A stretch of 64,000 nucleotides of DNA from a virus, in IMG/VR virus record IMGVR_UViG_3300042902_000064, positions 1-64,000 of that record. One strand, written 5' to 3'. Shown here in pieces: positions 2,864 to 61,700 of this stretch; positions within the stretch are counted from its first letter, which is position 1; each line of letters begins with the position of its first letter. The position numbers and the translations under genes were made by a program. A model generated the notes under the pieces. That model searched no databases, was not told where the DNA came from, and worked only from the letters and a program-made list of their open reading frames with translations.

Positions 2864-4279
2864 ATGGCAACAGACATTTCAGGAGTAGTGCTGCATAAGT
2901 TACTTTCTAGCCCAGAGGAAGCACTGGAAGTATTTCCAAAGCTTAAACCTTCTTTCTTTGGTGCTGGGTATATAAATATTTATACAGCAATAACTAAGTT
3001 TTACACAAAAAGAAATGCTCTACCCTCTTTCTACGATTTATTATTAGTTAGCAGGGATGGGCTAACAAAAAATAGTATAAAATCTTTACAGGAACTAGAA
3101 GTTCCAGAAGATATTGATTGGCTTCTTTTAATAGAAGCATTGATTGACCAGTATACTCAAGATGAAACATTAACAAAATTAGATAAGTTCCTAGACAATA
3201 TAACGTCTATGGATACTCAAGAGATAAAACAGAAGCTAACAGACATTGTCTTCTATCTAGAAGAGAAAACACACGTAGCAGAAGAAGTTTATACTGCCGC
3301 AGACTTAACATTGGCAGAAGATGAAGAGTTAGGGGCTAGAGTTCCTTTAGGGATTAATAATACGTTTGACGCTTTAACAGGTGGTATAGCGCTATCTGAG
3401 TTAATATTTATAGGTGGAGAGCGTGGCTCTGGTAAGTCTATTGTTGCTGTAAATATAGTAAACAATCAATACTTACAAGGTAACGTATCTGCTCTATTTA
3501 GTATTGAAATGAGAGCGCAAGAAGTTTACTGGCGTATGTTATCTTCTATGGCAGGTGTGAGATTTTCTGCTATTAGAAAGAATACATTAACAGATGTAGA
3601 AGTAGGAAGAGTGGCTAAAGTTGTTAGTGGTATGTATGTCGATAGTTCGGAACTGTATGAGAAATTTGTTTCTAACAGGGATTACAAAGAACTAGAGAAA
3701 GCGCTATCTTCAACTAAAAGACTGAAGCCAGAAAACCAGTTAGTAATTATTGATAACCAGCAATTAACTTTGGCTGATATTGATATGAACATTCAAAAGT
3801 TAAAGTCACAGGCTGGTGATAAGCTAAAAGTAGTAGTTGTAGACTATGTTAATCAAATTGAAATTGAAGACATATACAACTGGCAGTCTCAAATTACCTT
3901 GTCTAAGGGGCTAAAGAACTTAGCTAGGAAGCATAATATTGTTATAGTTGCTCCATACCAAATAGATAAAACTGGCGAGGCTAGGTTCGCCAAAGGACTG
4001 CTTGACGCAGTAGATATGGCGATTACGTTAAAAGCTGGAAAGGATTACATTGCTTTTGAAACTACGAAAGTTCGTAACATACCTGCAACTAAGTTCGCAA
4101 GTGGGATAGATTGGGAAACCTTGAATATATCCCCACAGGATGCGGTTATTGCATCAGATGATGCAGTTGAGCCTTCTGAGGACGAAGAGAAATCTAAGTT
4201 CAAGAAGAAACCTAAGAAAGATGCTGAGGGTTACATAGTTAAAGCCGGAGAGCAAAAACCAGACGATTTACCATTCTAA
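2864..4279 (+). CDS. DnaB-like replicative DNA helicase
   Basis: RecA-type core with Walker A GGERGSGKS and Walker B VVVVDYV, and a DnaB-like N-terminal helical region. It sits immediately upstream of the primase. Acidic/basic tail ends in PDDLPF. Confidence 0.8.
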   Translation: MATDISGVVLHKLLSSPEEALEVFPKLKPSFFGAGYINIYTAITKFYTKRNALPSFYDLLLVSRDGLTKNSIKSLQELEVPEDIDWLLLIEALIDQYTQDETLTKLDKFLDNITSMDTQEIKQKLTDIVFYLEEKTHVAEEVYTAADLTLAEDEELGARVPLGINNTFDALTGGIALSELIFIGGERGSGKSIVAVNIVNNQYLQGNVSALFSIEMRAQEVYWRMLSSMAGVRFSAIRKNTLTDVEVGRVAKVVSGMYVDSSELYEKFVSNRDYKELEKALSSTKRLKPENQLVIIDNQQLTLADIDMNIQKLKSQAGDKLKVVVVDYVNQIEIEDIYNWQSQITLSKGLKNLARKHNIVIVAPYQIDKTGEARFAKGLLDAVDMAITLKAGKDYIAFETTKVRNIPATKFASGIDWETLNISPQDAVIASDDAVEPSEDEEKSKFKKKPKKDAEGYIVKAGEQKPDDLPF

Positions 4280-35282: not shown

Positions 35283-35671
35283 TCATTGATAACAGCCATT
35301 AGCCAGTTATCAAAAGCTGTTGAGTTTTTTACAAGTGTAGTAGCCGCCTCTTCAGAGAAAGGAAACTCAGCTTCTGTATCTGTAACACTAGACAAGTCTA
35401 CAGGCATTAGTTCTGCTAAGTATTTGATTTTTAAACCTGTCCAGCCTTTTAAAGCTGCACCAACATATAACTTATAAAATAAGTCATCATCAATTGCTTC
35501 TTCTGGCAGACGGGTTGCTTTATTAAAGCCAATAGTTGTGGCTTGTTTTCTTAGTTTTTGTAGTAAATCTCTAGACATATATTGCAGACTGACTTCAAAC
35601 CCTTTAAGGTCTGGGTCTGGGTATGCGATTGTTATTAAAGAGCTTGCTGATAAAAGTGATTTTAATTCCAC
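35255..35671 (-). CDS. G-like tail assembly chaperone
   Basis: 138 aa, between the tube and tape measure genes. A downstream -1 frame ORF overlaps its end. Confidence 0.6.
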   Translation of the reverse strand: MELKSLLSASSLITIAYPDPDLKGFEVSLQYMSRDLLQKLRKQATTIGFNKATRLPEEAIDDDLFYKLYVGAALKGWTGLKIKYLAELMPVDLSSVTDTEAEFPFSEEAATTLVKNSTAFDNWLMAVINDVSLFNKTV

Positions 35672-52821: not shown

Positions 52822-54114
52822 TTATTCAGTTAAGTTAGGTGCATAGGAGTAAATCATATACCTTATCGCATCCGCCATGTGACTGTATTCGTTGTGTTTC
52901 GGCTTTTCCCTTTCAAGACCTGTTTTAGACTCCCAGCTATAGTTATTCAATGCAGCAATACATTTAACACATCTAGGGTCTACCTTAAGTCTATCATTAT
53001 CTATAAGCGAAGCTACGAAACCAATACCGTCTAGAACAGACTTATTACTTTTAATAGTTGTAATATCGTATGTCATTGCCAAGTCCGCACGCGTCTGGGC
53101 TGCTGCGGAGTCTATGTAGAAGAGATCGATATCCCACTTCTCCATCAACACATGTATTCTCTCAGCATGTGCTTCAGTAGATTTTTGCACCATTTCATAC
53201 TCATCTACAATATAGATATTATACCCGTCTGTAACGGCGACACAAACAGCTGTAGGATCCTTGTACCCCATATCTATCCCGCCAATTACGTCCGAAACGC
53301 CTAACATGCTAAGGTCTATATTAGTAACCATAGTTTCTGTATTAAACGCCCATATTTTTCCTTGTAAAACACTGAAGTCAGCATAGTACTCCTGCCTCCA
53401 TTCCGCATCGCTCATCGACTTCTGAGCTGCTAGAATGTCTGCTTCTAATGCTCTAGGGTTTTCATGCCAATCTGCATGTATAGTAACCCAGTCCGAAAAC
53501 TCCTCGGAAAAGCCTCTATCAAAAACAGTACTAAACCAGTTTTTACCACGAGGCGTACTAATAAAGATACACTTGCTGTTTAGCTTATCTAGTGTTGGAC
53601 GTAGTTGTATATTGAAAGCATCGCCTCCCTTATCGGCGAGGGCAGCTTCATCAAATATAATAAGATCATACGATCTACCAACAACGGAATCAGGCTGACT
53701 AACAGACCCGACACGAATTGTACTACCATTAGTAAGTTCGATAATCTTGTCTTTAGCATTTGATTTGTCCAGCTCTATGTCGAACCTACGAAGTAGTCCC
53801 TTCTGTAGATCCCAAGAAATTGTTGATAGTGAGTAGTTCGGTGCCATTATAAGTACGTTAGCCCCAGGAACTAATGATACTAGGTTCCCTACTACGTTGG
53901 ATATAAATGTCTTACCCACACGTCTACTAAGACATGCAGTTATAAAACGATACTTTGGGTCATTTACAGCGTTTATAACAGCTATCTGAGGAGCATTAGG
54001 TTTAATATCTAACATTGGTAGATAGTTTTCTATTGGGAGCTTTAAGAACCTATCGTTAATATCACGAAGGACAATCTCATCACTTCTTACGTCTGGTCTA
54101 CTTATCGTTAGCAT
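52822..54114 (-). CDS. terminase large subunit
   Basis: Walker A-like CLSRRVGKTF, Walker B LIIFDEAA, and a C-terminal RNase H-like nuclease (GGIDMGYKDPTA, YIDSAA). Confidence 0.85.
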   Translation of the reverse strand: MLTISRPDVRSDEIVLRDINDRFLKLPIENYLPMLDIKPNAPQIAVINAVNDPKYRFITACLSRRVGKTFISNVVGNLVSLVPGANVLIMAPNYSLSTISWDLQKGLLRRFDIELDKSNAKDKIIELTNGSTIRVGSVSQPDSVVGRSYDLIIFDEAALADKGGDAFNIQLRPTLDKLNSKCIFISTPRGKNWFSTVFDRGFSEEFSDWVTIHADWHENPRALEADILAAQKSMSDAEWRQEYYADFSVLQGKIWAFNTETMVTNIDLSMLGVSDVIGGIDMGYKDPTAVCVAVTDGYNIYIVDEYEMVQKSTEAHAERIHVLMEKWDIDLFYIDSAAAQTRADLAMTYDITTIKSNKSVLDGIGFVASLIDNDRLKVDPRCVKCIAALNNYSWESKTGLEREKPKHNEYSHMADAIRYMIYSYAPNLTE

Positions 54115-54392: not shown

Positions 54393-54941
54393 CTATCCAT
54401 TGTTCTTCCCACCTATAATTTGCTGTAGTAAAGAACCGTAGTTTGATGATACAGAGTCCCCAACATTGGTAATTTGTACTGCCGTTCCAACCTTAGTTCT
54501 GCCTAAAGCTTCAACTTCTAGTATTTTAAGTTGCATTTTCATTTCTTCCATTCTCATTTTATGCGCAGCTAGGAGAAGTTCTGAAATATCTTTACTACTG
54601 ACTAGTTCTGTTTCCTCCATCTCCGCCAGCTTAGCGTCGATGACGCTAGACATGGCGTTACTTATGCGACTTCTATTCATATATCCTTGGTCTAGGAAGG
54701 CTTGGTCTACTACCGTGCGTACAGATTTATGACGCATCATTTTTGTGACTTCTTCTAGAGACATACGCATTAGTTTACCTGTCTCTTTTAAATCTAGGCA
54801 TGATAAATAACACTTAGCAAATTCTAAGTGTTCAGGTGATATATTGAACTCTTCGTCTAAGACTGTTGGTTCAGGGCGACTAGAGGGCATTATCTCTAGT
54901 GAGGAATTTTGAGGTTGTGTATCGTAGTTGTCTTCTAACAT
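54393..54941 (-). CDS. putative terminase small subunit
   Basis: Sits upstream of TerL, is helical, and is the first gene after the consensus promoter. I place the start at ATG 54941, because the track start at 55001 is a TTG inside the -35 box. Confidence 0.45.
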   Translation of the reverse strand: MLEDNYDTQPQNSSLEIMPSSRPEPTVLDEEFNISPEHLEFAKCYLSCLDLKETGKLMRMSLEEVTKMMRHKSVRTVVDQAFLDQGYMNRSRISNAMSSVIDAKLAEMEETELVSSKDISELLLAAHKMRMEEMKMQLKILEVEALGRTKVGTAVQITNVGDSVSSNYGSLLQQIIGGKNNG

Positions 54942-54972
54942 GTTTTTTCCAGTATATTTAATTAATACGACC

Positions 54973-55001
54973 ATTATACAACAAGTGTGTGCGAATGTCA
55001 A
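54973..55001 (-). promoter_or_regulatory. perfect sigma-70 consensus promoter (TTGACA-17-TATAAT)
   Basis: On the - strand: TTGACA (55001-54996), 17-nt spacer, TATAAT (54978-54973). Confidence 0.75.
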
Positions 55002-55329
55002 GAAAAATATTTTTGTACCACATAAGTGTATCGATATTTTATTACTTTTTGAAATTGTGGGAGGTATGGTAGGGAGGGGAAGGATTAACGAAGTTGTAAA
55101 TCTCGGGAAACTTTGATAATTTTTTGAGGATTGGGGTGTTTGGTGTTGTGGAAGACAAGTCTCGGTAGCTTTCGCTTATTGGTGGCGGTTGTTGGAAACA
55201 AGGGAAGATTAGGGCATTTGTATTGATGTGTATAGATAGACCTTTCTTATAAAACGAAAAAATCCAAATGGTTTACGCGCGGGTGGGCTCTCCTGCAAGA
55301 ACTGTGCCATGTCTGATAACCGCCCCCAT

Positions 55330-55457
55330 TGGCACGGATCTTGCTAGGGATTCCAGATGGCACGGATCTTGCTAGGGATTCCAGATGGCATGGATCTTGC
55401 TAGGGATTCCAGATGGCATGGATCTTGCTAGGGATTCCAGATGGCATGGATCTTGCC
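55330..55457 (+). repeat. tandem array of 4.5 x 28 bp, each unit carrying a sigma-54 -24/-12-like core
   Basis: Unit: ggca(c/t)ggatcttgctagggattccagat. Cores TGGCA(C/T)GGATCTTGC(T/C) lie at 55330, 55358, 55386, 55414 and 55442. Every unit contains a GATC. Confidence 0.9.
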
Positions 55458-55533
55458 CACGGCATGAGAATTTACACTAACAAAGCTAGGTTGTAACACC
55501 TTGATTTATAAGGAGTTTTTAAGATTTGCGCTG

Positions 55534-55565
55534 ATTTGCGCAAATTTTCGGCTGGTCGAAAATTT
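55534..55565. promoter_or_regulatory. palindrome ATTTGCGCAAAT plus an adjacent 9-bp-stem hairpin, flanked by 19-bp direct repeats
   Basis: atttgcgcaaat at 55534-55545. aaattttcg-gctggt-cgaaaattt at 55542-55565. Direct repeats ttgatttataagga(g/c)tttt at 55501 and 55572. Confidence 0.5.
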
Positions 55566-55660
55566 AAGTCATTGATTTATAAGGACTTTTTATTTTAATG
55601 CGATCTGAAAAATTTTATTTCTGTATAATAAACTCATAGGCAAAGACAAGGAACATTAAA

Positions 55661-55750
55661 ATGATAAAAACAATTTTTTTACTTATTATATCATACGCGG
55701 GTTTTCTCGCGTATAATGTAGGACTGGCAATTTTGCCATTATTGGGATAA
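55661..55750 (+). CDS. possible 29-aa hydrophobic mini-protein (MIKTIFLLIISYAGFLAYNVGLAILPLLG)
   Basis: Read by eye; below the track threshold. AAGGAA SD lies 7 nt upstream of the ATG. Confidence 0.35.
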   Translation: MIKTIFLLIISYAGFLAYNVGLAILPLLG

Positions 55751-55779
55751 CTCCCGCTTTTCAATCTGAGGATCTAAAA

Positions 55780-56199
55780 ATGACAACTTCAACAACTGCA
55801 ACAAAATCAGCGGTCGCCAACTATGACGCGGATACAACTAGCCAAGTGATCAAGGCGATGCAAGGCGTAAAAAACCACGCCGATCAAGTCGCCGCGATCA
55901 TTGGCTTAATGCTATCAACTGGAAAAAATAAAAGGTCTTTAACTGCTAAAATCAGCAACCTGAGCCGCGATGCAGAAAACAAGATCACGTTTTACGGGGT
56001 AGAAAAAAACACCACGAAAACAGGATCAAAGGTAGAAAGCAAAGCGATCAAGGTTCAACAGATCGAAAAATTGATCGGTGGTGGTGTTCAACTTGATAGC
56101 ATGGAGAAATGTACCAAACATGATCTAGATATTATCTTAGGTGCGCTGTCAATGACTGAGGAAGAAATCGCCGACCTTAATGACGATCAAGCAATCTAA
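55780..56199 (+). CDS. DNA-binding-like protein, paralogue of 58767-59123
   Basis: The two proteins align along their length: Y.(D/E)D.T, S(L/V)(T/R)AK(I/L), K(N/T)TK(T/S)G, (L/I)..I..L(I/M)G.....(M/L)EK.TK..L..I. Confidence 0.65.
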   Translation: MTTSTTATKSAVANYDADTTSQVIKAMQGVKNHADQVAAIIGLMLSTGKNKRSLTAKISNLSRDAENKITFYGVEKNTTKTGSKVESKAIKVQQIEKLIGGGVQLDSMEKCTKHDLDIILGALSMTEEEIADLNDDQAI

Positions 56200-56216
56200 A
56201 AACCGTTAAACCTTGC

Positions 56217-56240
56217 AAGGTCGCCGCCTTTGGCGACCTT
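56217..56240 (+). promoter_or_regulatory. intergenic 9-bp-stem hairpin (attenuator or processing site candidate)
   Basis: aaggtcgcc-gccttt-ggcgacctt. Only a weak T-run follows. Confidence 0.4.
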
Positions 56241-56259
56241 CACTTTAGGATCTAAAATT

Positions 56260-56508
56260 ATGAATAACGAAATATACGATGACTCGATAGAAAACTATAA
56301 TCAAACGATTATAACAGGACTCGAAATGGTTGCGGCGATCTTAACGGTGGCTGGCTTATACTTACTTACTATAGGCGTCGCGCTTGGGTTTATTTTAGGC
56401 GCGTTGGGTTGCGTGGCTTGGCTGATTGTTGCGTTAAGCAATAAGTTATACTATTTAGCCGCCTTAAACGTTGCCCTTTTTATTATCAACGTATCAGGTG
56501 CGATATAA
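56260..56508 (+). CDS. small integral membrane protein (about 3 TM segments)
   Basis: I place the start at ATG 56260. It is preceded by AGGATCTAAAA, the same RBS context as gene 55780. The sequence has hydrophobic stretches. Confidence 0.6.
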   Translation: MNNEIYDDSIENYNQTIITGLEMVAAILTVAGLYLLTIGVALGFILGALGCVAWLIVALSNKLYYLAALNVALFIINVSGAI

Positions 56509-57206
56509 TGAAAAAGCAATTTTATATTATAGTAGACACTGAAACGACAGAGGAAGATACGGTCGCGGACTTTGGCGCGGTGGTATGTGATCGGCACGGT
56601 GTGATCTTCCACGAGATCGGCGTACTTGTCGCGGGTGAATTTGGCGAGAAAAAACTGTTCCACGATCAGAACAGTAAATTAGAGATCTGGAACATGAGAG
56701 GCTTACAAAGAAGAACCGAAAATTATAATAGTATGCTTAACAGCGGATCGCGGGTACTGGCAAGCGTTAATGCGATCAACCGCTGGTTAGACAAAGCGAT
56801 CAGCTTATACAATCCTGAGCTGACAGCGTATAATCTAGCCTTTGATCTTGGAAAATGTGCGAATACTGGAATTGATCTCACTCGCTTTGATCGTCGTTTT
56901 TGCCTTTGGCAAGCGAGCGTGGGTAATATCTGTAACACGAAAAAATACAAAAAATTTGTTTTAGATAATCACTACTTCAACAACAGAACCGAAAAAGGCA
57001 ATATGACGATCCAAACTAGCGCGGAGCGCGTCACTCACTTTGTGACGGGCGCGGATCTTACTGAGCCGCATACAGCCTTAGAAGATGCGCGAGACTTTGA
57101 GCTAAAAATATTAAAGCACATACTAAAGAAGCGGGCTTGGCGTGAAAATATGAGACCGTATAGCTGGCACGACCATCAACTAAATAACCATTTTTCCGCT
57201 AATTAA
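56508..57206 (+). CDS. DEDDh (DnaQ-like) 3'-5' exonuclease
   Basis: Exo I IIVDTETT, Exo II AYNLAFD, Exo III HTALEDARD. Confidence 0.8.
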   Translation: MKKQFYIIVDTETTEEDTVADFGAVVCDRHGVIFHEIGVLVAGEFGEKKLFHDQNSKLEIWNMRGLQRRTENYNSMLNSGSRVLASVNAINRWLDKAISLYNPELTAYNLAFDLGKCANTGIDLTRFDRRFCLWQASVGNICNTKKYKKFVLDNHYFNNRTEKGNMTIQTSAERVTHFVTGADLTEPHTALEDARDFELKILKHILKKRAWRENMRPYSWHDHQLNNHFSAN

Positions 57207-57257
57207 ATAATCAACTAGCGCGATCCCGAAAGGGATCGCCACTTGGGGCAAAATAAA

Positions 57258-57743
57258 ATGAAAAATAAAATTATAACTTTTGATTTCGATGGCGTGCTTG
57301 CTGATAGCTCGAATCGTTACCAACTAGCAAAAACCGAACCGCACGAAAAACCACGGATCGATCTTCAACACTGGCGCGATAATTCTCATAAAGTAGCGGA
57401 GGATCTTCCTATAGCGGAAAATATCGCGCTTTATAACGCGGCGATCAAAGATCCGACCGTGGTGGTCGTTATCGCGACCGCTAGGGTATGGTGTGAACTT
57501 TCGGATCGGTGGGTCTTTGATCATCTTGATGCCTTTCCAGATTACCTGAGCCATAGGATCAACGAGGAAGATCAACGACCTGCCAACGATATAAAAGGCG
57601 TTTTTGTTGCTTCACTTTTGCAGATATACAAATCAATAAAAACGGTCGTATTTTATGATGATAATCTAGAATACTTAAAACAATTTAAGCAAGCGATACC
57701 ACACGCTGAAACGATTCATATATTGAGCAATCAAGGGTACTAG
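57258..57743 (+). CDS. HAD-superfamily 5'(3')-deoxyribonucleotidase-like phosphatase
   Basis: ITFDFDGVLADS (DxDGV motif I, as in the NT5C family DMDGVLADF). VIATAR and YDDN resemble motifs II-IV. I place the start at ATG 57258. Confidence 0.65.
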   Translation: MKNKIITFDFDGVLADSSNRYQLAKTEPHEKPRIDLQHWRDNSHKVAEDLPIAENIALYNAAIKDPTVVVVIATARVWCELSDRWVFDHLDAFPDYLSHRINEEDQRPANDIKGVFVASLLQIYKSIKTVVFYDDNLEYLKQFKQAIPHAETIHILSNQGY

Positions 57744-57746
57744 ACT

Positions 57747-57833
57747 ATGAAAATTTTCTTTTCTGGCATGGCTAAATTGATATTTTTTATTATTATCTTG
57801 TTTTTACTTGTTACTTTTACCTTACCGATCTAG
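57747..57833 (+). CDS. possible 28-aa hydrophobic mini-protein (MKIFFSGMAKLIFFIIILFLLVTFTLPI)
   Basis: Read by eye; below the track threshold. It lies 3 nt after the stop of the phosphatase gene and just before the terminator. Confidence 0.35.
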   Translation: MKIFFSGMAKLIFFIIILFLLVTFTLPI

Positions 57834-57844
57834 CACCTGAGGAC

Positions 57845-57879
57845 AAAAAAACCCGTTATTATATAGCGGGTTTTTTTTT
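57845..57879. terminator. bidirectional rho-independent terminator
   Basis: A7-acccg ... cgggt-T9. Confidence 0.7.
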
Positions 57880-57895
57880 GCCAAAAATAAAAACT

Positions 57896-57911
57896 TGGCA
57901 CGAATTTTGCG
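57896..57911 (+). promoter_or_regulatory. solitary sigma-54 -24/-12-like element TGGCACGAATTTTGCG
   Basis: Matches TGGCACG-N4-TTGC with exact GG/GC spacing. A weaker copy, TGGCATGGCGTTAGCC, lies at 57918-57933. Confidence 0.45.
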
Positions 57912-57944
57912 CCAAAATGGCATGGCGTTAGCCATTCATTATAT

Positions 57945-58033
57945 CGCGCCGTAAATGCGAATCATTCTCATTTAGATTTGCACTTAGGTTTACGCCCGCA
58001 AATGTAAATAAGAATGATTCGCATTTGGGCGCG
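57945..58033. repeat. 89-nt inverted repeat (about 33 bp of potential stem)
   Basis: Perfect 16-bp arms aaatgcgaatcattct (57953-57968) / agaatgattcgcattt (58011-58026). Extended outward by cgcgcc/ggcgcg and inward by attta/taaat and atttgc/gcaaat. Confidence 0.85.
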
Positions 58034-58104
58034 CCGAAAAATGCACGGACTCCCACGATACCATGATATCAGGTTACTTGTCCACATGCAAATTTATTTT
58101 ACCA

Positions 58105-58233
58105 TGCAAGAATCATGCCATGAAAAAACAAGCAAGAATCATGCCATGAAAAAACAAGCAAGAATCATGCCATGAAAAAACAAGCAAGAATCATGCCATG
58201 AAAAAACAAGCAAGAATCATGCCATGAAAAAAC
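58105..58233 (-). repeat. tandem array of 5 x 26 bp carrying sigma-54 -24/-12-like cores on the - strand
   Basis: + strand unit: gcaagaatcatgccatgaaaaaacaa. Its reverse complement contains TGGCATGATTCTTGC(T/A). The core is the same as in the 55.3-kb array but in inverted orientation. Confidence 0.9.
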
Positions 58234-58461
58234 GTCAATTTTTTGACGCGTCAATTTTTTGACTGTCAATTTTTTGACGCGTCATTTTTTTGACGTCAAT
58301 TTTTTGACTGTCAATTTTTTGACGCGGCATTTTTTTGACGTCAATTTTTTGACTGTCAATTTTTTGACTGTCAATTTTTTGACGCGGCATTTTTTTGACG
58401 CGTCAATTTTTTGACGCGTCATTTTTTTGACGTCAATTTTTTGACGCGTCAATTTTTTGAC
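58234..58461. repeat. 15 tandem copies of a 14-nt unit GTCAA-TTTT-TTGAC (spacers 0-2 nt)
   Basis: 11 x GTCAATTTTTTGAC, 2 x GTCATTTTTTTGAC, 2 x GGCATTTTTTTGAC. The 5-nt arms are reverse complements of each other. Confidence 0.9.
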
Positions 58462-58591
58462 GGTAGCACAAAAAGCGCAAGCTTTTTGCGCCAGTGCGCA
58501 ACTGCAATTTTTTTCAAGTGCATGAGTGCCGTGGGGGCAGGTGCGTGCAGACAGTGCCAGAGCGACATATGTCAAGTAAATATTTTTAAAC

Positions 58592-58620
58592 TTGATTATA
58601 GTTCCTGATCGGCGTATAAT
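58592..58620 (+). promoter_or_regulatory. sigma-70-like promoter TTGATT-17-TATAAT
   Basis: Hexamers at 58592-58597 and 58615-58620. Confidence 0.6.
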
Positions 58621-58680: not shown

Positions 58681-58709
58681 TTGACTTCTGACCTCATCAA
58701 GCGTATAAT
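58681..58709 (+). promoter_or_regulatory. sigma-70-like promoter TTGACT-17-TATAAT
   Basis: Hexamers at 58681-58686 and 58704-58709, about 58 nt upstream of ATG 58767. Confidence 0.7.
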
Positions 58710-58766: not shown

Positions 58767-59123
58767 ATGACTGACAAAGCTAAAGTAACAGGTGCTCGTT
58801 ATACTGAAGATCAAACACTAGAGTTGGTAGAAGCATATACAGCCGTTGAAACACAAGAAGCACGCGACGCAGTGGTATCTACTTATGCCGCTAAGTTCGA
58901 ACGCCCAGTAGCCTCCGTTAGAGCGAAGCTCGCATCTGAGCGGGTTTATGTACCTAAAGCTAAGACTACTAAATCTGGCGATCCTATCGTTCGTAAAGAC
59001 CAGCTAGTAGCTCAAATTGCCCACCTAATGGGTGAGTCAGAAGAAGCGGTTGAGTGCCTAGAAAAGGTTACTAAACCTGTACTACAAAAAATCATCACTC
59101 AACTAACTTCCCCTTGGGAGTAA
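58767..59123 (+). CDS. DNA-binding-like protein, paralogue of 55780-56199
   Basis: I place the start at ATG 58767, with a GGAGGA SD. See the alignment motifs listed for 55780-56199. The N-terminal domain also resembles the repeats of 1331-2071. Confidence 0.7.
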   Translation: MTDKAKVTGARYTEDQTLELVEAYTAVETQEARDAVVSTYAAKFERPVASVRAKLASERVYVPKAKTTKSGDPIVRKDQLVAQIAHLMGESEEAVECLEKVTKPVLQKIITQLTSPWE

Positions 59124-59141
59124 AGTTCTCTTGAACAATTA

Positions 59142-59166
59142 AGCCTGCCTTGTGCAGGTTTTTTTG
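59142..59166 (+). terminator. rho-independent terminator
   Basis: cctgc-cttgt-gcagg followed by T7. Confidence 0.7.
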
Positions 59167-59200
59167 TGCCCAAAATAAATGACCTCTCCCAGCCTGCGCC

Positions 59201-59230
59201 ATTATACGCCTCCCAAATACTTTTTGTCAA
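59201..59230 (-). promoter_or_regulatory. sigma-70 consensus hexamers TTGACA-18-TATAAT on the - strand, facing the 3' end of gene 58767-59123
   Basis: TTGACA (59230-59225), 18-nt spacer, TATAAT (59206-59201). Confidence 0.55.
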
Positions 59231-59500
59231 GTCAATTTCAAACTCAGTTTTTCAAAAGTGCATAGTCTGTTTTTGTGTAGTCTATTTATACCGCCCCCTC
59301 GGCGCCAGTGCTCAACTGTAAATTTTCAGGGCGCCCATTATAACACACAGACATACATAGTTGTCAACTGTGTTTTCCGGCAGTGGGTTGCCCAGATTTT
59401 AAGAAGAGGGAAGTCTGTCCCGTGTCCCAGGACTAGGGACACCAAGCAATTACTTTTTTGTAAATGTCAAGTATTATTTCTCCCCAATTGTATATAACTG

Positions 59501-59532
59501 CCCCTATCCGCCGCTTCGCGGCTAGACGGGGG
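59501..59532 (+). repeat. conserved ~33-nt hairpin element, copy 1
   Basis: CCCCTATCC-GCCGCTTCGCGGC-TAGAC-GGGGG: an inner GCCGC/GCGGC stem and an outer CCCC/GGGG stem. Confidence 0.6.
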
Positions 59533-59557
59533 AGATAGGTTAATATAAAGTTGGATA

Positions 59558-59595
59558 ATCCCCAATTTGGGGATCATCGTACCCAATTTGGGGAT
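59558..59595 (+). repeat. two tandem copies of (C)CCCAATTTGGGGAT
   Basis: atccccaatttggggat at 59558-59574 and tacccaatttggggat at 59580-59595. A related ccccaattg lies at 59482. Confidence 0.6.
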
Positions 59596-59858
59596 GATGT
59601 GATGAGAGCCATAGGTATACCTCTTACTTTCTGAGTTGTGAAGATTCAGGCAAAAGTGGTGTTCCCCAAACTAAGAAAACCTACAACAATTACACAATCG
59701 AGGAAGATCATATGGTGAATTATTTTTTTACAATGAGGAATTCTGAAACTTTCAAAATTTTGTGCAGGAACCGAACAAATAGGGGAAATATCGCTATTTT
59801 ACACATATCAACAATAAAACCCGTATTTAGGAAATAAGTGCCCTTTTTGAGCAGTAAT

Positions 59859-59893
59859 CCCCCTATTTGCCGCTTCGCGGCAGGTTGGGGAGG
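59859..59893 (+). repeat. conserved ~33-nt hairpin element, copy 2
   Basis: CCCCCTATTT-GCCGCTTCGCGGC-AGGTT-GGGGAGG, in the same orientation as copy 1. Confidence 0.6.
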
Positions 59894-60133
59894 TTATAGA
59901 GGTATTCTGCATATTTGGGCAGGTTATAACACTTATCTACCGTAATTCACTTGATTGGGGAATTATATGCGGTAATTTACAAAATAGCGCCGAAATTGAT
60001 CTGGCAGCGCCGATTTTCAGACTTGAAATCTTGAGCCGCTGCTTTCTAATGATTTCAGGGTAATATTCAGGGCAGATATACAGAGCTATCTAGTAGTAAG
60101 TGTGAAATCGTGCAGTACAAAACATACAGACAT

Positions 60134-60156
60134 AAAAAAGCCCCAATTAAGGGGCT
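60134..60156 (-). terminator. rho-independent terminator ending the - strand operon
   Basis: On the - strand: AGCCCC-ttaatt-GGGGCT followed by T6. Confidence 0.7.
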
Positions 60157-60162
60157 GATTGT

Positions 60163-61627: not shown

Positions 61628-61640
61628 TAATCTTCTCTAT

Positions 61641-61700
61641 ATCTAGAATAGGTTATTGTATCTAGAATTTTTATATCTAGAATAGTGTGTTATCTAGAAT
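61641..61700. promoter_or_regulatory. four spaced copies of ATCTAGAAT (TCTAGA palindrome core) upstream of gene 60737-61627
   Basis: Copies at 61641, 61660, 61675 and 61692. A fifth, TTCTAGAAT, lies at 60735-60743 and overlaps the stop codon of the same gene. Confidence 0.5.

Follow-up and report, generated by a model that had tools for sequence, protein, structure and literature searches.

The 64,000-nucleotide stretch of viral DNA analysed here, positions 1 to 64,000 of the IMG/VR record IMGVR_UViG_3300042902_000064 (the window), carries beside its terminase genes two arrays of short tandem repeats, which match the recognition sequence of sigma-54 (RpoN) and point towards each other across a cassette of four genes. 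We favour the reading that the repeats are sites for the RNA polymerase-sigma-54 holoenzyme of the host, with −24/−12 cores tiled head to tail. Judging from the sequence, the holoenzyme is probably the ligand of the arrays, and the chances that the arrays fire as promoters appear evenly balanced. What carries this reading is the identity of the cores with sigma-54 sites, the match of a neighbouring row of boxes to a FleQ consensus, the geometry of these elements and the spread of similar arrays in other phages (positions in Table 1).

A first-pass annotation of this DNA had described five exact 26-bp units near 58.1 kb (array 2), and Tandem Repeats Finder returns the same element, with period 26, 4.9 copies, 100% matches and a score of 256 for the unit GCAAGAATCATGCCATGAAAAAACAA. 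The annotation had also counted about 12 cores in 3 kb and none elsewhere, which agrees with the 12 matches that the pattern TGGCAYNNNNNTTGC (TGGCAY-N5-TTGC) gives in the 64-kb window, all within 55295-58224; in dinucleotide shuffles the mean is 0.17 matches and the maximum 2. The inverted, inward-pointing arrangement is confirmed too, as the minus-strand array 2 faces the plus-strand array 1 across about 2.65 kb, array 1 being divergent from the small terminase gene (terS) and directed into the cassette. The description of the two arrays as the same element had to be abandoned, since only the 15-nt core is common to both, whereas the units (28 vs 26 bp) and the linkers differ. The arrays are thus not copies of one element, and transposon-like terminal inverted repeats were ruled out on the same ground. 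The repeats are corroborated by independent assemblies: a contig from another sample (L194, 99.96% identical; comparison loci carry L numbers) has an array 1 with 4 cores instead of 5 (L194 485-583), reflecting either copy-number variation or assembly collapse, and a Logan contig (L195) equals window positions 55427-58106 exactly, so that one of its ends falls within array 1 and the other on the first base of array 2.

To compare the cores with known sites, we used a weight matrix made from 29 intergenic Salmonella sites enriched by sigma-54 pull-down. The training sites score 15.9-23.2 bits (median 19), and with 21.4-21.5 bits for array 2 and 16.0-21.5 bits for array 1 the cores stand at the level of real Salmonella sites, in line with the sigma-54 likeness noted in the first annotation. 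Outside the arrays and the solitary cores, the rest of the 64 kb holds a single site of at least 15 bits, at 35504 (15.9 bits). The free positions of the array 2 cores fall at the 98.8th percentile of the null, all five cores have GG and GC dinucleotides exactly 10 bp apart, and the array shows the extended consensus, with Y before TGG, G-R after TGGCAC and W after TTGC.

Directly upstream of the minus-strand cores, at 10-355 bp, lies a row of 15 boxes which the earlier annotation had overlooked and which makes the sigma-54 reading much more coherent. Eleven of the 15 are identical to the Pseudomonas putida FleQ consensus GTCAaAAAAtTGAC (PMC6120874) and the other four have 1-2 mismatches, against 0.03-0.67 expected by chance; a 14-bp FleQ box reads GTCaNTAAAtTGAC or GTCAaAAAAtTGAC, and the row adjoins the five cores of array 2. 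Around the 15 boxes there are neither flagellar nor biofilm genes, the context being that of a phage. FleQ is the sigma-54-dependent master activator of flagellar genes, and the enhancer sites of such activators typically lie 80-150 bp upstream of the sigma-54 core. Use of the boxes by an activator of the FleQ/FlrA type is possible, somewhat short of an even chance, and we regard the FleQ assignment as a lead, not a result. Similar boxes occur elsewhere. In L071 (large terminase, TerL, 54% identical) the cores are interleaved with GTCAA..TTGAC boxes, and tandem boxes of this type are found in 44 IMG/VR contigs from several unrelated phage groups, mostly without sigma-54 cores. A core lies within 500 bp of the boxes in 9 of the 43 loci examined besides L071, and the box-bearing loci outside the L071 family hold 5 cores within this distance vs about 0.2 by chance, according to our estimate. 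No protein universally adjoining the tandem GTCAA..TTGAC boxes was found.

Tiling of sigma-54-type cores characterises viral contigs and hardly occurs in the bacterial species genomes that were scanned. When IMG/VR was searched for pairs of cores separated by 8-20 nt, at least 120 contigs matched, where a calculation by hand predicts about 6 by chance if the collection is assumed to hold about 60 Gb; the locus statistics in this text refer to the matches listed. Across 506 unique core contexts from 120 loci, the positions left unfixed by the search agree with the sigma-54 consensus (T/C ahead of TGG, G and next R behind TGGCAY, A/T after TTGC), and the partial score of these free positions averages +0.89 bits, that of the null −4.08 (407 unique 18-mers). 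Spacers keep strictly to 5 nt (539 cores vs 2-17 for each other length from 0 to 12), and the spacing of same-strand cores peaks at 26-28 bp within an allowed range of 23-35. Among the arrays with at least three cores, 29 of 30 have diverged cores and linkers while keeping the core and the 26-28 bp phase, which indicates selection for multiplicity. In comparison, a three-core scan of 185,579 bacterial species genomes gave 15 hits, about 10 of which represent coding repeats (their period is divisible by three, or position 7 holds a C/T, which is not sigma-54-like), and about 4-5 look sigma-54-like, one of these matching a viral contig.

The same listed loci reveal a preferred orientation. The coding sequence in the 1.5 kb downstream is mostly co-oriented with the array in 80 of 130 cases and mostly opposite in 22, the rest being unclassifiable, and the upstream side is divergent in 85 and co-oriented in 18. 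At loci with a TerL homologue all 52 arrays lie 5' of TerL (median 1.28 kb), and 43 of the 52 point away from it. Because the arrays orient towards co-oriented genes and away from the terminase, promoter use at the head of the early module is favoured, and the comparative data as a whole lean toward a directional, promoter-like use. Array 1 fits this common pattern; array 2 belongs to a minority type and reads into a short untranslated unit. The TerL proteins of the array-bearing phages are only 23-58% identical, and no protein is shared next to the arrays (47 singletons among 72 downstream proteins). As the motif recurs across this range with unrelated downstream genes, a host factor is the more economical ligand. 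Nine metagenome contigs with an identical tandem core come from unrelated phages, without boxes and with no similarity to window positions 52-64 kb.

The first-pass annotation had proposed a search for the same bracket in related genomes, and the outcome is divided. Single cores facing each other are present in cultured Vibrio T5-like phages: in Ceto (L001 487-749) a plus core of 23.3 bits and a minus core of 20.2 bits are separated by about 230 bp, and sigma-54-like plus and minus cores are likewise placed in PVo5 (L002 ~3240-3513). In both phages these cores lie in the untranslated region corresponding to that of the window, and the gap of about 230 bp holds three DnaA boxes (TTATCCACA) and palindromes. 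Vibrio has RpoN. The bracket is not kept in L123 (TerS 96% identical), which retains the solitary core beside terS and lacks array 1; this contig stops 240 bp beyond the solitary core. In L124 (TerS 68% identical) the cores read into a homologous cassette, where the contig ends, and degenerate TGGCATG repeats without TTGC occur at 17-bp spacing. Tandem cores stand directly upstream of A2-like genes in L096, L039, L027 and L108. In L043 (TerL 53% identical) a triple array is followed by a AAATGCGA..TCGCATTT hairpin and then by the 3' end of a convergent gene, as with array 2. Upstream of this triple array (L043 2440-2900) there are five copies of CTGGCATTGAAATTTCACTTGCA (TGGCAT-N11-CTTGC), three to four of TTTCTAACTTGCA at 17 bp and three of GGGCAGGTAGCTTGCAGG, repeat families that keep only parts of the core.

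Reading leftward from array 2, the DNA encodes a putative unit of about 210 nt, whose start we placed about 12 nt beyond the GC dinucleotide in the core nearest to it. The corresponding putative RNA folds with −81.4 kcal/mol (z = −6.3), and 0 of 200 shuffles were as stable. Going downstream from the array, the order is a weak sigma-70-like promoter, the motif GGGCGCGCC, an inverted repeat and a terminator, the last being the minus strand of the solitary core at 57894-57916, which forms a terminator-like hairpin with a T run behind it (57893-57884). The window gave no match in Rfam and tRNA scans. The motif GGGCGCGCC together with an AAATG...CATTT inverted repeat is found in the window (57953-58035), in L043 (1828-1860, 3025-3055 and 3738-3775) and in the Vibrio phages Ceto (L001 760-805) and PVo5 (L002 ~3525-3565); in L043 it stands just after sigma-70-type early promoters. 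The pair may act as an operator or a 5' stem-loop that is conserved in this lineage.

The mechanism we propose is the following. With a 26-bp period, each core would start about where the transcript of the preceding core begins. Array 2 and the 15 upstream FleQ/FlrA-type enhancer boxes would constitute an activator-gated promoter cluster, reading leftward into the structured untranslated unit as far as the terminators that close the cassette on its 3' side, whereas array 1 would be the usual form of the device, placed in the divergent gap beside the terminase genes and reading into the genes from the A2-like to the dmp-like one. Multiple copies would let the incoming phage DNA capture scarce sigma-54 holoenzyme, which is the likely benefit, and expression of the region would then depend on a host enhancer-binding ATPase active in motile cells. 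Array 2 with its boxes may equally be an enhancer-promoter block in which occupancy matters more than product.

Several observations weigh against this proposal. Sigma-54 promoters require an enhancer-binding ATPase, and no protein with a GAFTGA motif, the mark of a sigma-54 activator, is encoded in the 64-kb window; the sole GAFTGA-type activator among the fetched loci is at L131, a locus of a bacterial metagenome-assembled genome. Most of the other listed arrays are without a recognisable enhancer, and, conversely, no core lies within 500 bp of the tandem GTCAA-W4-TTGAC boxes in 34 of 43 viral loci (L071 aside). The FleQ consensus is itself contested in the chromatin immunoprecipitation sequencing study from which it was taken. 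Stable closed complexes on the downstream cores should block polymerases started upstream, so that tiling would be odd for a strong promoter. Array 2 faces the 3' end of the cassette, and no credible open reading frame was found in the unit downstream of it; sigma-70-type promoters precede the same units as the arrays. In one family (L053/L120) the tandem cores are antisense to plausible genes, and in another (L026/L034-type) the core orientation alternates every 22-25 bp. Finally, the units of array 2 are exact, L123 has no array 1 and that of L194 has 4 copies, all of which points to a copy number that is labile and perhaps not finely selected. The two tandem cores of the L053/L120 family (L053 1970-5560, L120 750-4650) form, together with CTGCCATTTTGGCAG palindromes, a module of about 200 bp that recurs 6-7 times, scattered among small early genes.

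Some of these points would be better accommodated if the arrays and boxes were silent landing pads, loading sigma-54 holoenzyme as closed complexes, together with a FleQ-type protein, as a sink or as a nucleoprotein obstacle or anchor bordering the DNA that enters first, the counterpart of the T5 injection-stop region. This comes near to the suggestion of the first-pass annotation that convergent closed complexes could insulate or bracket the cassette, stall DNA translocation or replication, or act as a sigma-54 sink. Such a sponge or roadblock, bracketing a first-entering pre-early cassette in phages of many lineages, could pause DNA entry in the manner of the proposed T5 stop signal, insulate the cassette or disable the host sigma-54 regulon. 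The tiling by about 2.5 turns (26-28 bp for cores, 14-16 bp for boxes) puts neighbours on roughly opposite faces of the helix, which in our interpretation suits occupancy over firing, and the absence of a gene downstream of array 2, the existence of alternating and antisense arrays and the pre-early-type A2-like and dmp-like genes of the cassette are all in keeping with it. There is also a precedent in T5-like coliphages, where arrays of boxes for the host DnaA protein lie in inverted repeats of the untranslated first-step-transfer region and are proposed to stop injection (Davison, bioRxiv 10.1101/866236), and the cores of Ceto and PVo5 face each other across three DnaA boxes. However, this injection-stop model is itself a proposal, no DnaA boxes lie near the window arrays, and a terminal repeat and two-step injection are only hypothetical for this phage. 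Moreover, an orientation bias is unexpected for an orientation-blind sink or block, and the 12 sites on one incoming genome cannot titrate the sigma-54 of a cell, which amounts to about 100 molecules in E. coli. We consider both the sink and the roadblock version unlikely, although they deserve to be kept in mind.

The other explanations have a lower probability, as each of them leaves the consensus, spacer and orientation data unexplained. The ligand could be encoded by the phage (the A2-like protein, the small terminase or another regulator), the sigma-54 likeness being coincidence or mimicry, and A2-like genes do adjoin the arrays in the window, L124, L096, L039, L027 and L108, while the listed arrays are always 5' of the terminase genes. 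The partial repeats of L124 (TGGCATG without TTGC) and L043 (TGGCAT-N11-CTTGCA and CTTGCA only), and the CTGCCATTTTGGCAG palindromes beside the cores of L053, may further mean that TGGCA or CTTGCA half-sites matter alone. Yet the 15-nt motif, the strict spacer and the sigma-54 free positions persist over the whole range of TerL identity and among unrelated neighbours, where the specificity of a phage protein is not expected to stay fixed, nor to equal that of sigma-54, and no common phage protein accompanies the arrays, which makes this explanation improbable. A role in replication or packaging, as origin iterons, a pac site or terminal-repeat boundary, or a partition site, is more improbable still. 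It is suggested by the non-coding, repeat-rich region beside terS and terL, by the conserved junction motif CTGATAACCGCCCCCA abutting array 1 and by contigs that end in arrays (29 of the 130 listed lie within 300 bp of a locus end), but assemblers break contigs at tandem repeats anyway, Pfam and PHROG scans of the flanking genes revealed no Rep, Par or initiator gene nearby, and within the window 40-55 kb separate the replication module from the arrays. The core motif is the same in spite of the low TerL identity, so that it does not co-vary with the cognate terminase as a TerS pac site would, and the sigma-54 free positions and the orientation bias are left unexplained. Least probable of all, and very much so, is a recent, neutral slippage expansion of a single core, functional or not, with a meaningless copy number. 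The 100% identical units, the 4 vs 5 cores of the near-identical L194 and the absence of array 1 from L123 would fit it, whereas the listed diverged arrays that hold to core and phase speak against it, as does a window with two independent arrays plus a box array.

Table 1. Features of the window and its surroundings (window coordinates unless a contig is named)
Feature	Position	Strand	Remarks
Array 1	55330-55456	plus	Period 28, 4.5 copies, 98% matches; cores TGGCA(C/T)GGATCTTGC
Array 2, five 26-bp units	58106-58233	minus	Reverse complement of each unit holds the sigma-54-type core TGGCATGATTCTTGC
Array 2 cores	58106-58120, 58132-58146, 58158-58172, 58184-58198, 58210-58224	minus	From pattern scan
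FleQ-type boxes, 15 back-to-back 14-bp copies of GTCAAAAAATTGAC	58234-58461	minus, one orientation	Start-to-start spacing 14-16 bp
Solitary core TGGCACAGTTCTTGCAGG	55292-55309	minus, toward terS	16.3 bits; kept with flanks in L123
Solitary core TGGCACGAATTTTGC	57894-57916 (core 57896-57910)	plus	15.7 bits (scored 57896-57913)
Junction motif CTGATAACCGCCCCCA	55313-55328	unassigned	Abuts array 1; in L123 and L071, degenerate in L124
Putative untranslated unit read from array 2	57884-58094	minus	About 210 nt
Inverted repeat	57953-58026	unassigned	29-nt arms, 93% complementary, 16-nt gap; next to GGGCGCGCC at 58027-58035
Predicted intrinsic terminator hairpin of the untranslated unit	57916-57894 + T run	minus	Would end the unit
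Sigma-70-like promoter	58063-58092	minus	TTTGCA, 18 nt, TATCAT, with TG; 9/12, weak consensus match only
Large terminase	52822-54114	minus	48% identical to that of Vibrio T5-like phages (best TerL identity among cultured phages)
Small terminase	54393-55001		Follows the large terminase
Bracketed cassette	55780-57743	plus	Four co-oriented genes; array 1 reads into them
139-aa paralogue of A2-like DNA-binding protein	within 55780-57743	plus	Cassette gene
82-aa PnuC-like membrane fragment	within 55780-57743	plus	Cassette gene
232-aa protein, phrog_20187	56508-57206	plus	Cassette gene; no Pfam match
161-aa HAD phosphatase	within 55780-57743	plus	Cassette gene; weak similarity to T5 dmp
Cassette terminator	57850-57879	plus	Read from sequence
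Second A2-like DNA-binding protein gene, phrog_1725	58767-59123	plus	Weak pairwise matches to T5 A2 and Ceto gp13
Sigma-70-type promoters of the second A2-like gene	58592-58620, 58681-58709	plus	Upstream of 58767-59123
Perfect sigma-70 consensus promoters	54973-55001, 59201-59230	minus	TTGACA, 17 or 18 nt, TATAAT; 12/12
Third A2 paralogue	L196 59-415, about 2.4 kb before window position 1		Hits Pfam Phage_T5_A2; heads replication module

The phage of the window, which is part of a 91.6-kb contig from a JGI metagenome, is a marine phage and a distant T5 relative, with no close relative in culture and no DNA match to cultured phages in 50,697 phage records (megablast of 55000-58600, blastn of 58095-58470). 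Its bracketed cassette resembles the pre-early module of T5, in that A2-like and dmp-like genes are present; no A1 gene was seen in the window. DnaA boxes (TTWTNCACA) have 3 matches in the 64 kb vs 7.3 expected, none of them in 55-59 kb. The 232-aa cassette protein, of which identical copies exist in two other samples, has by eye the motifs of a DEDDh 3'-5' exonuclease (IVDTETT, YNLAFD, HTALEDARD). The cassette also differs in composition, since between 55780 and 57760 GATC occurs at 18.2/kb vs 1.1/kb elsewhere in the window and CGCG at 9.1 vs 0.45/kb, palindromes avoided in the remainder of the phage. L124 has a homologous cassette (1-1500) that is GATC-rich too, which is not so for the L027 and L108 homologues of the 232-aa gene, and GATC is present in the array 1 cores and absent from those of array 2.

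Four related phages share the junction motif CTGATAACCGCCCCCA, placed some 300 bp upstream of terS (L123 ~221-240, L071 9843-9858 and L124 ~1440-1455 besides the window), and directly beyond it the related sequences part, into sigma-54 cores, FleQ-like boxes or the hairpin motif, which suggests a module junction or a terminal-repeat boundary. One of the two perfect sigma-70 consensus promoters (54973-55001) is directly upstream of terS and is kept in L123, and the other is directed into the terminator that follows the A2-like gene. After this gene about 1 kb (59130-60160) is without credible open reading frames, and a 34-bp tandem repeat of 1.9 copies lies at 61638-61700. The Logan contig with the third A2 paralogue (L196) begins inside the −10 region of the promoter of that gene.

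The favoured sigma-54 reading places the arrays close to several described systems. Bacterial sigma-54 promoters (glnAp2/NtrC, pspA/PspF and the FleQ/FlrA flagellar class II) share with the window the core, the extended consensus, the strict spacer and upstream dyad boxes, but they have one core and 1-3 activator sites, whereas here five cores are tiled at 26 bp and 15 boxes at 14-16 bp, and array 2 has no gene downstream. FleQ/FlrA promoters in particular carry one to few boxes at flagellar or biofilm genes, compared with 15 contiguous boxes in a phage context. The layout of array 2 is also that of sigma-54-dependent small RNA genes (Qrr/LuxO, GlmY-GlmZ/GlrR, CrcZ/CbrB), in which a core and activator sites precede a short, structured, terminator-ended unit, and glmY and glmZ are among the Salmonella sigma-54 sites; the putative array 2 RNA has, in contrast, no Rfam match, no sequence relation to these RNAs and a multi-copy promoter.

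Among phages, the T7 A1/A2/A3 and the T5 pre-early promoters are, as the arrays would be, stacked promoters for the host polymerase at the head of an early module, near the genome end and the packaging genes and directed into early genes. These are sigma-70 promoters about 100 bp apart that need no activator, whereas the arrays are of sigma-54 type, tiled at 26-28 bp and presumably enhancer-dependent. A sigma-54-like promoter was reported for the Pseudomonas phage YuA, a case of a phage promoter region assigned to the host sigma-54; it is a single site in a temperate-like siphovirus, with no array and no adjacent array of activator boxes. Full-text literature searches turned up this single promoter of YuA alone and no phage described as having arrays of sigma-54 cores. 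Mutants in rpoN and IHF were reported to resist a T5-like Salmonella phage, which the authors explain indirectly, through RpoS and glutamine.

In sequence, the element behaves like a sigma-54 promoter with an enhancer. It departs from described cases in copy number, in tiling and in its phage early-region context. By analogy, it sits where T5-like phages keep their untranslated repeat regions, which like that of the window are non-coding, rich in repeats and palindromes and adjacent to A2-like and dmp-like genes, with inverted host-factor sites bracketing the pre-early genes. The host factor is a different one: the T5 regions have DnaA boxes, and no sigma-54-like site of at least 13 bits was found in the T5 left terminal repeat, whereas the window has cores and no DnaA boxes there. 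In the Vibrio T5-like phages both kinds of site, DnaA boxes and facing sigma-54-like cores, occur together. Arrays of host-factor sites, be they DnaA boxes, sigma-54 cores or FleQ boxes, seem to be a common theme of these regions, which offers a concrete handle on their function.

As a promoter architecture, the tiling at 26-28 bp would be without cellular counterpart, and it raises the question of how many closed complexes fit side by side. In metagenomic phage contigs, the core motif makes it easy to mark where the early module starts. Early transcription in phages is taken to run on sigma-70 or on phage polymerases. Should the arrays be in use, the first genes of a large group of uncultured phages, for the most part marine, would be tied to an enhancer-dependent sigma factor of the host, and infection would depend on the signalling state of the host and possibly, through FleQ/FlrA, on its motility.

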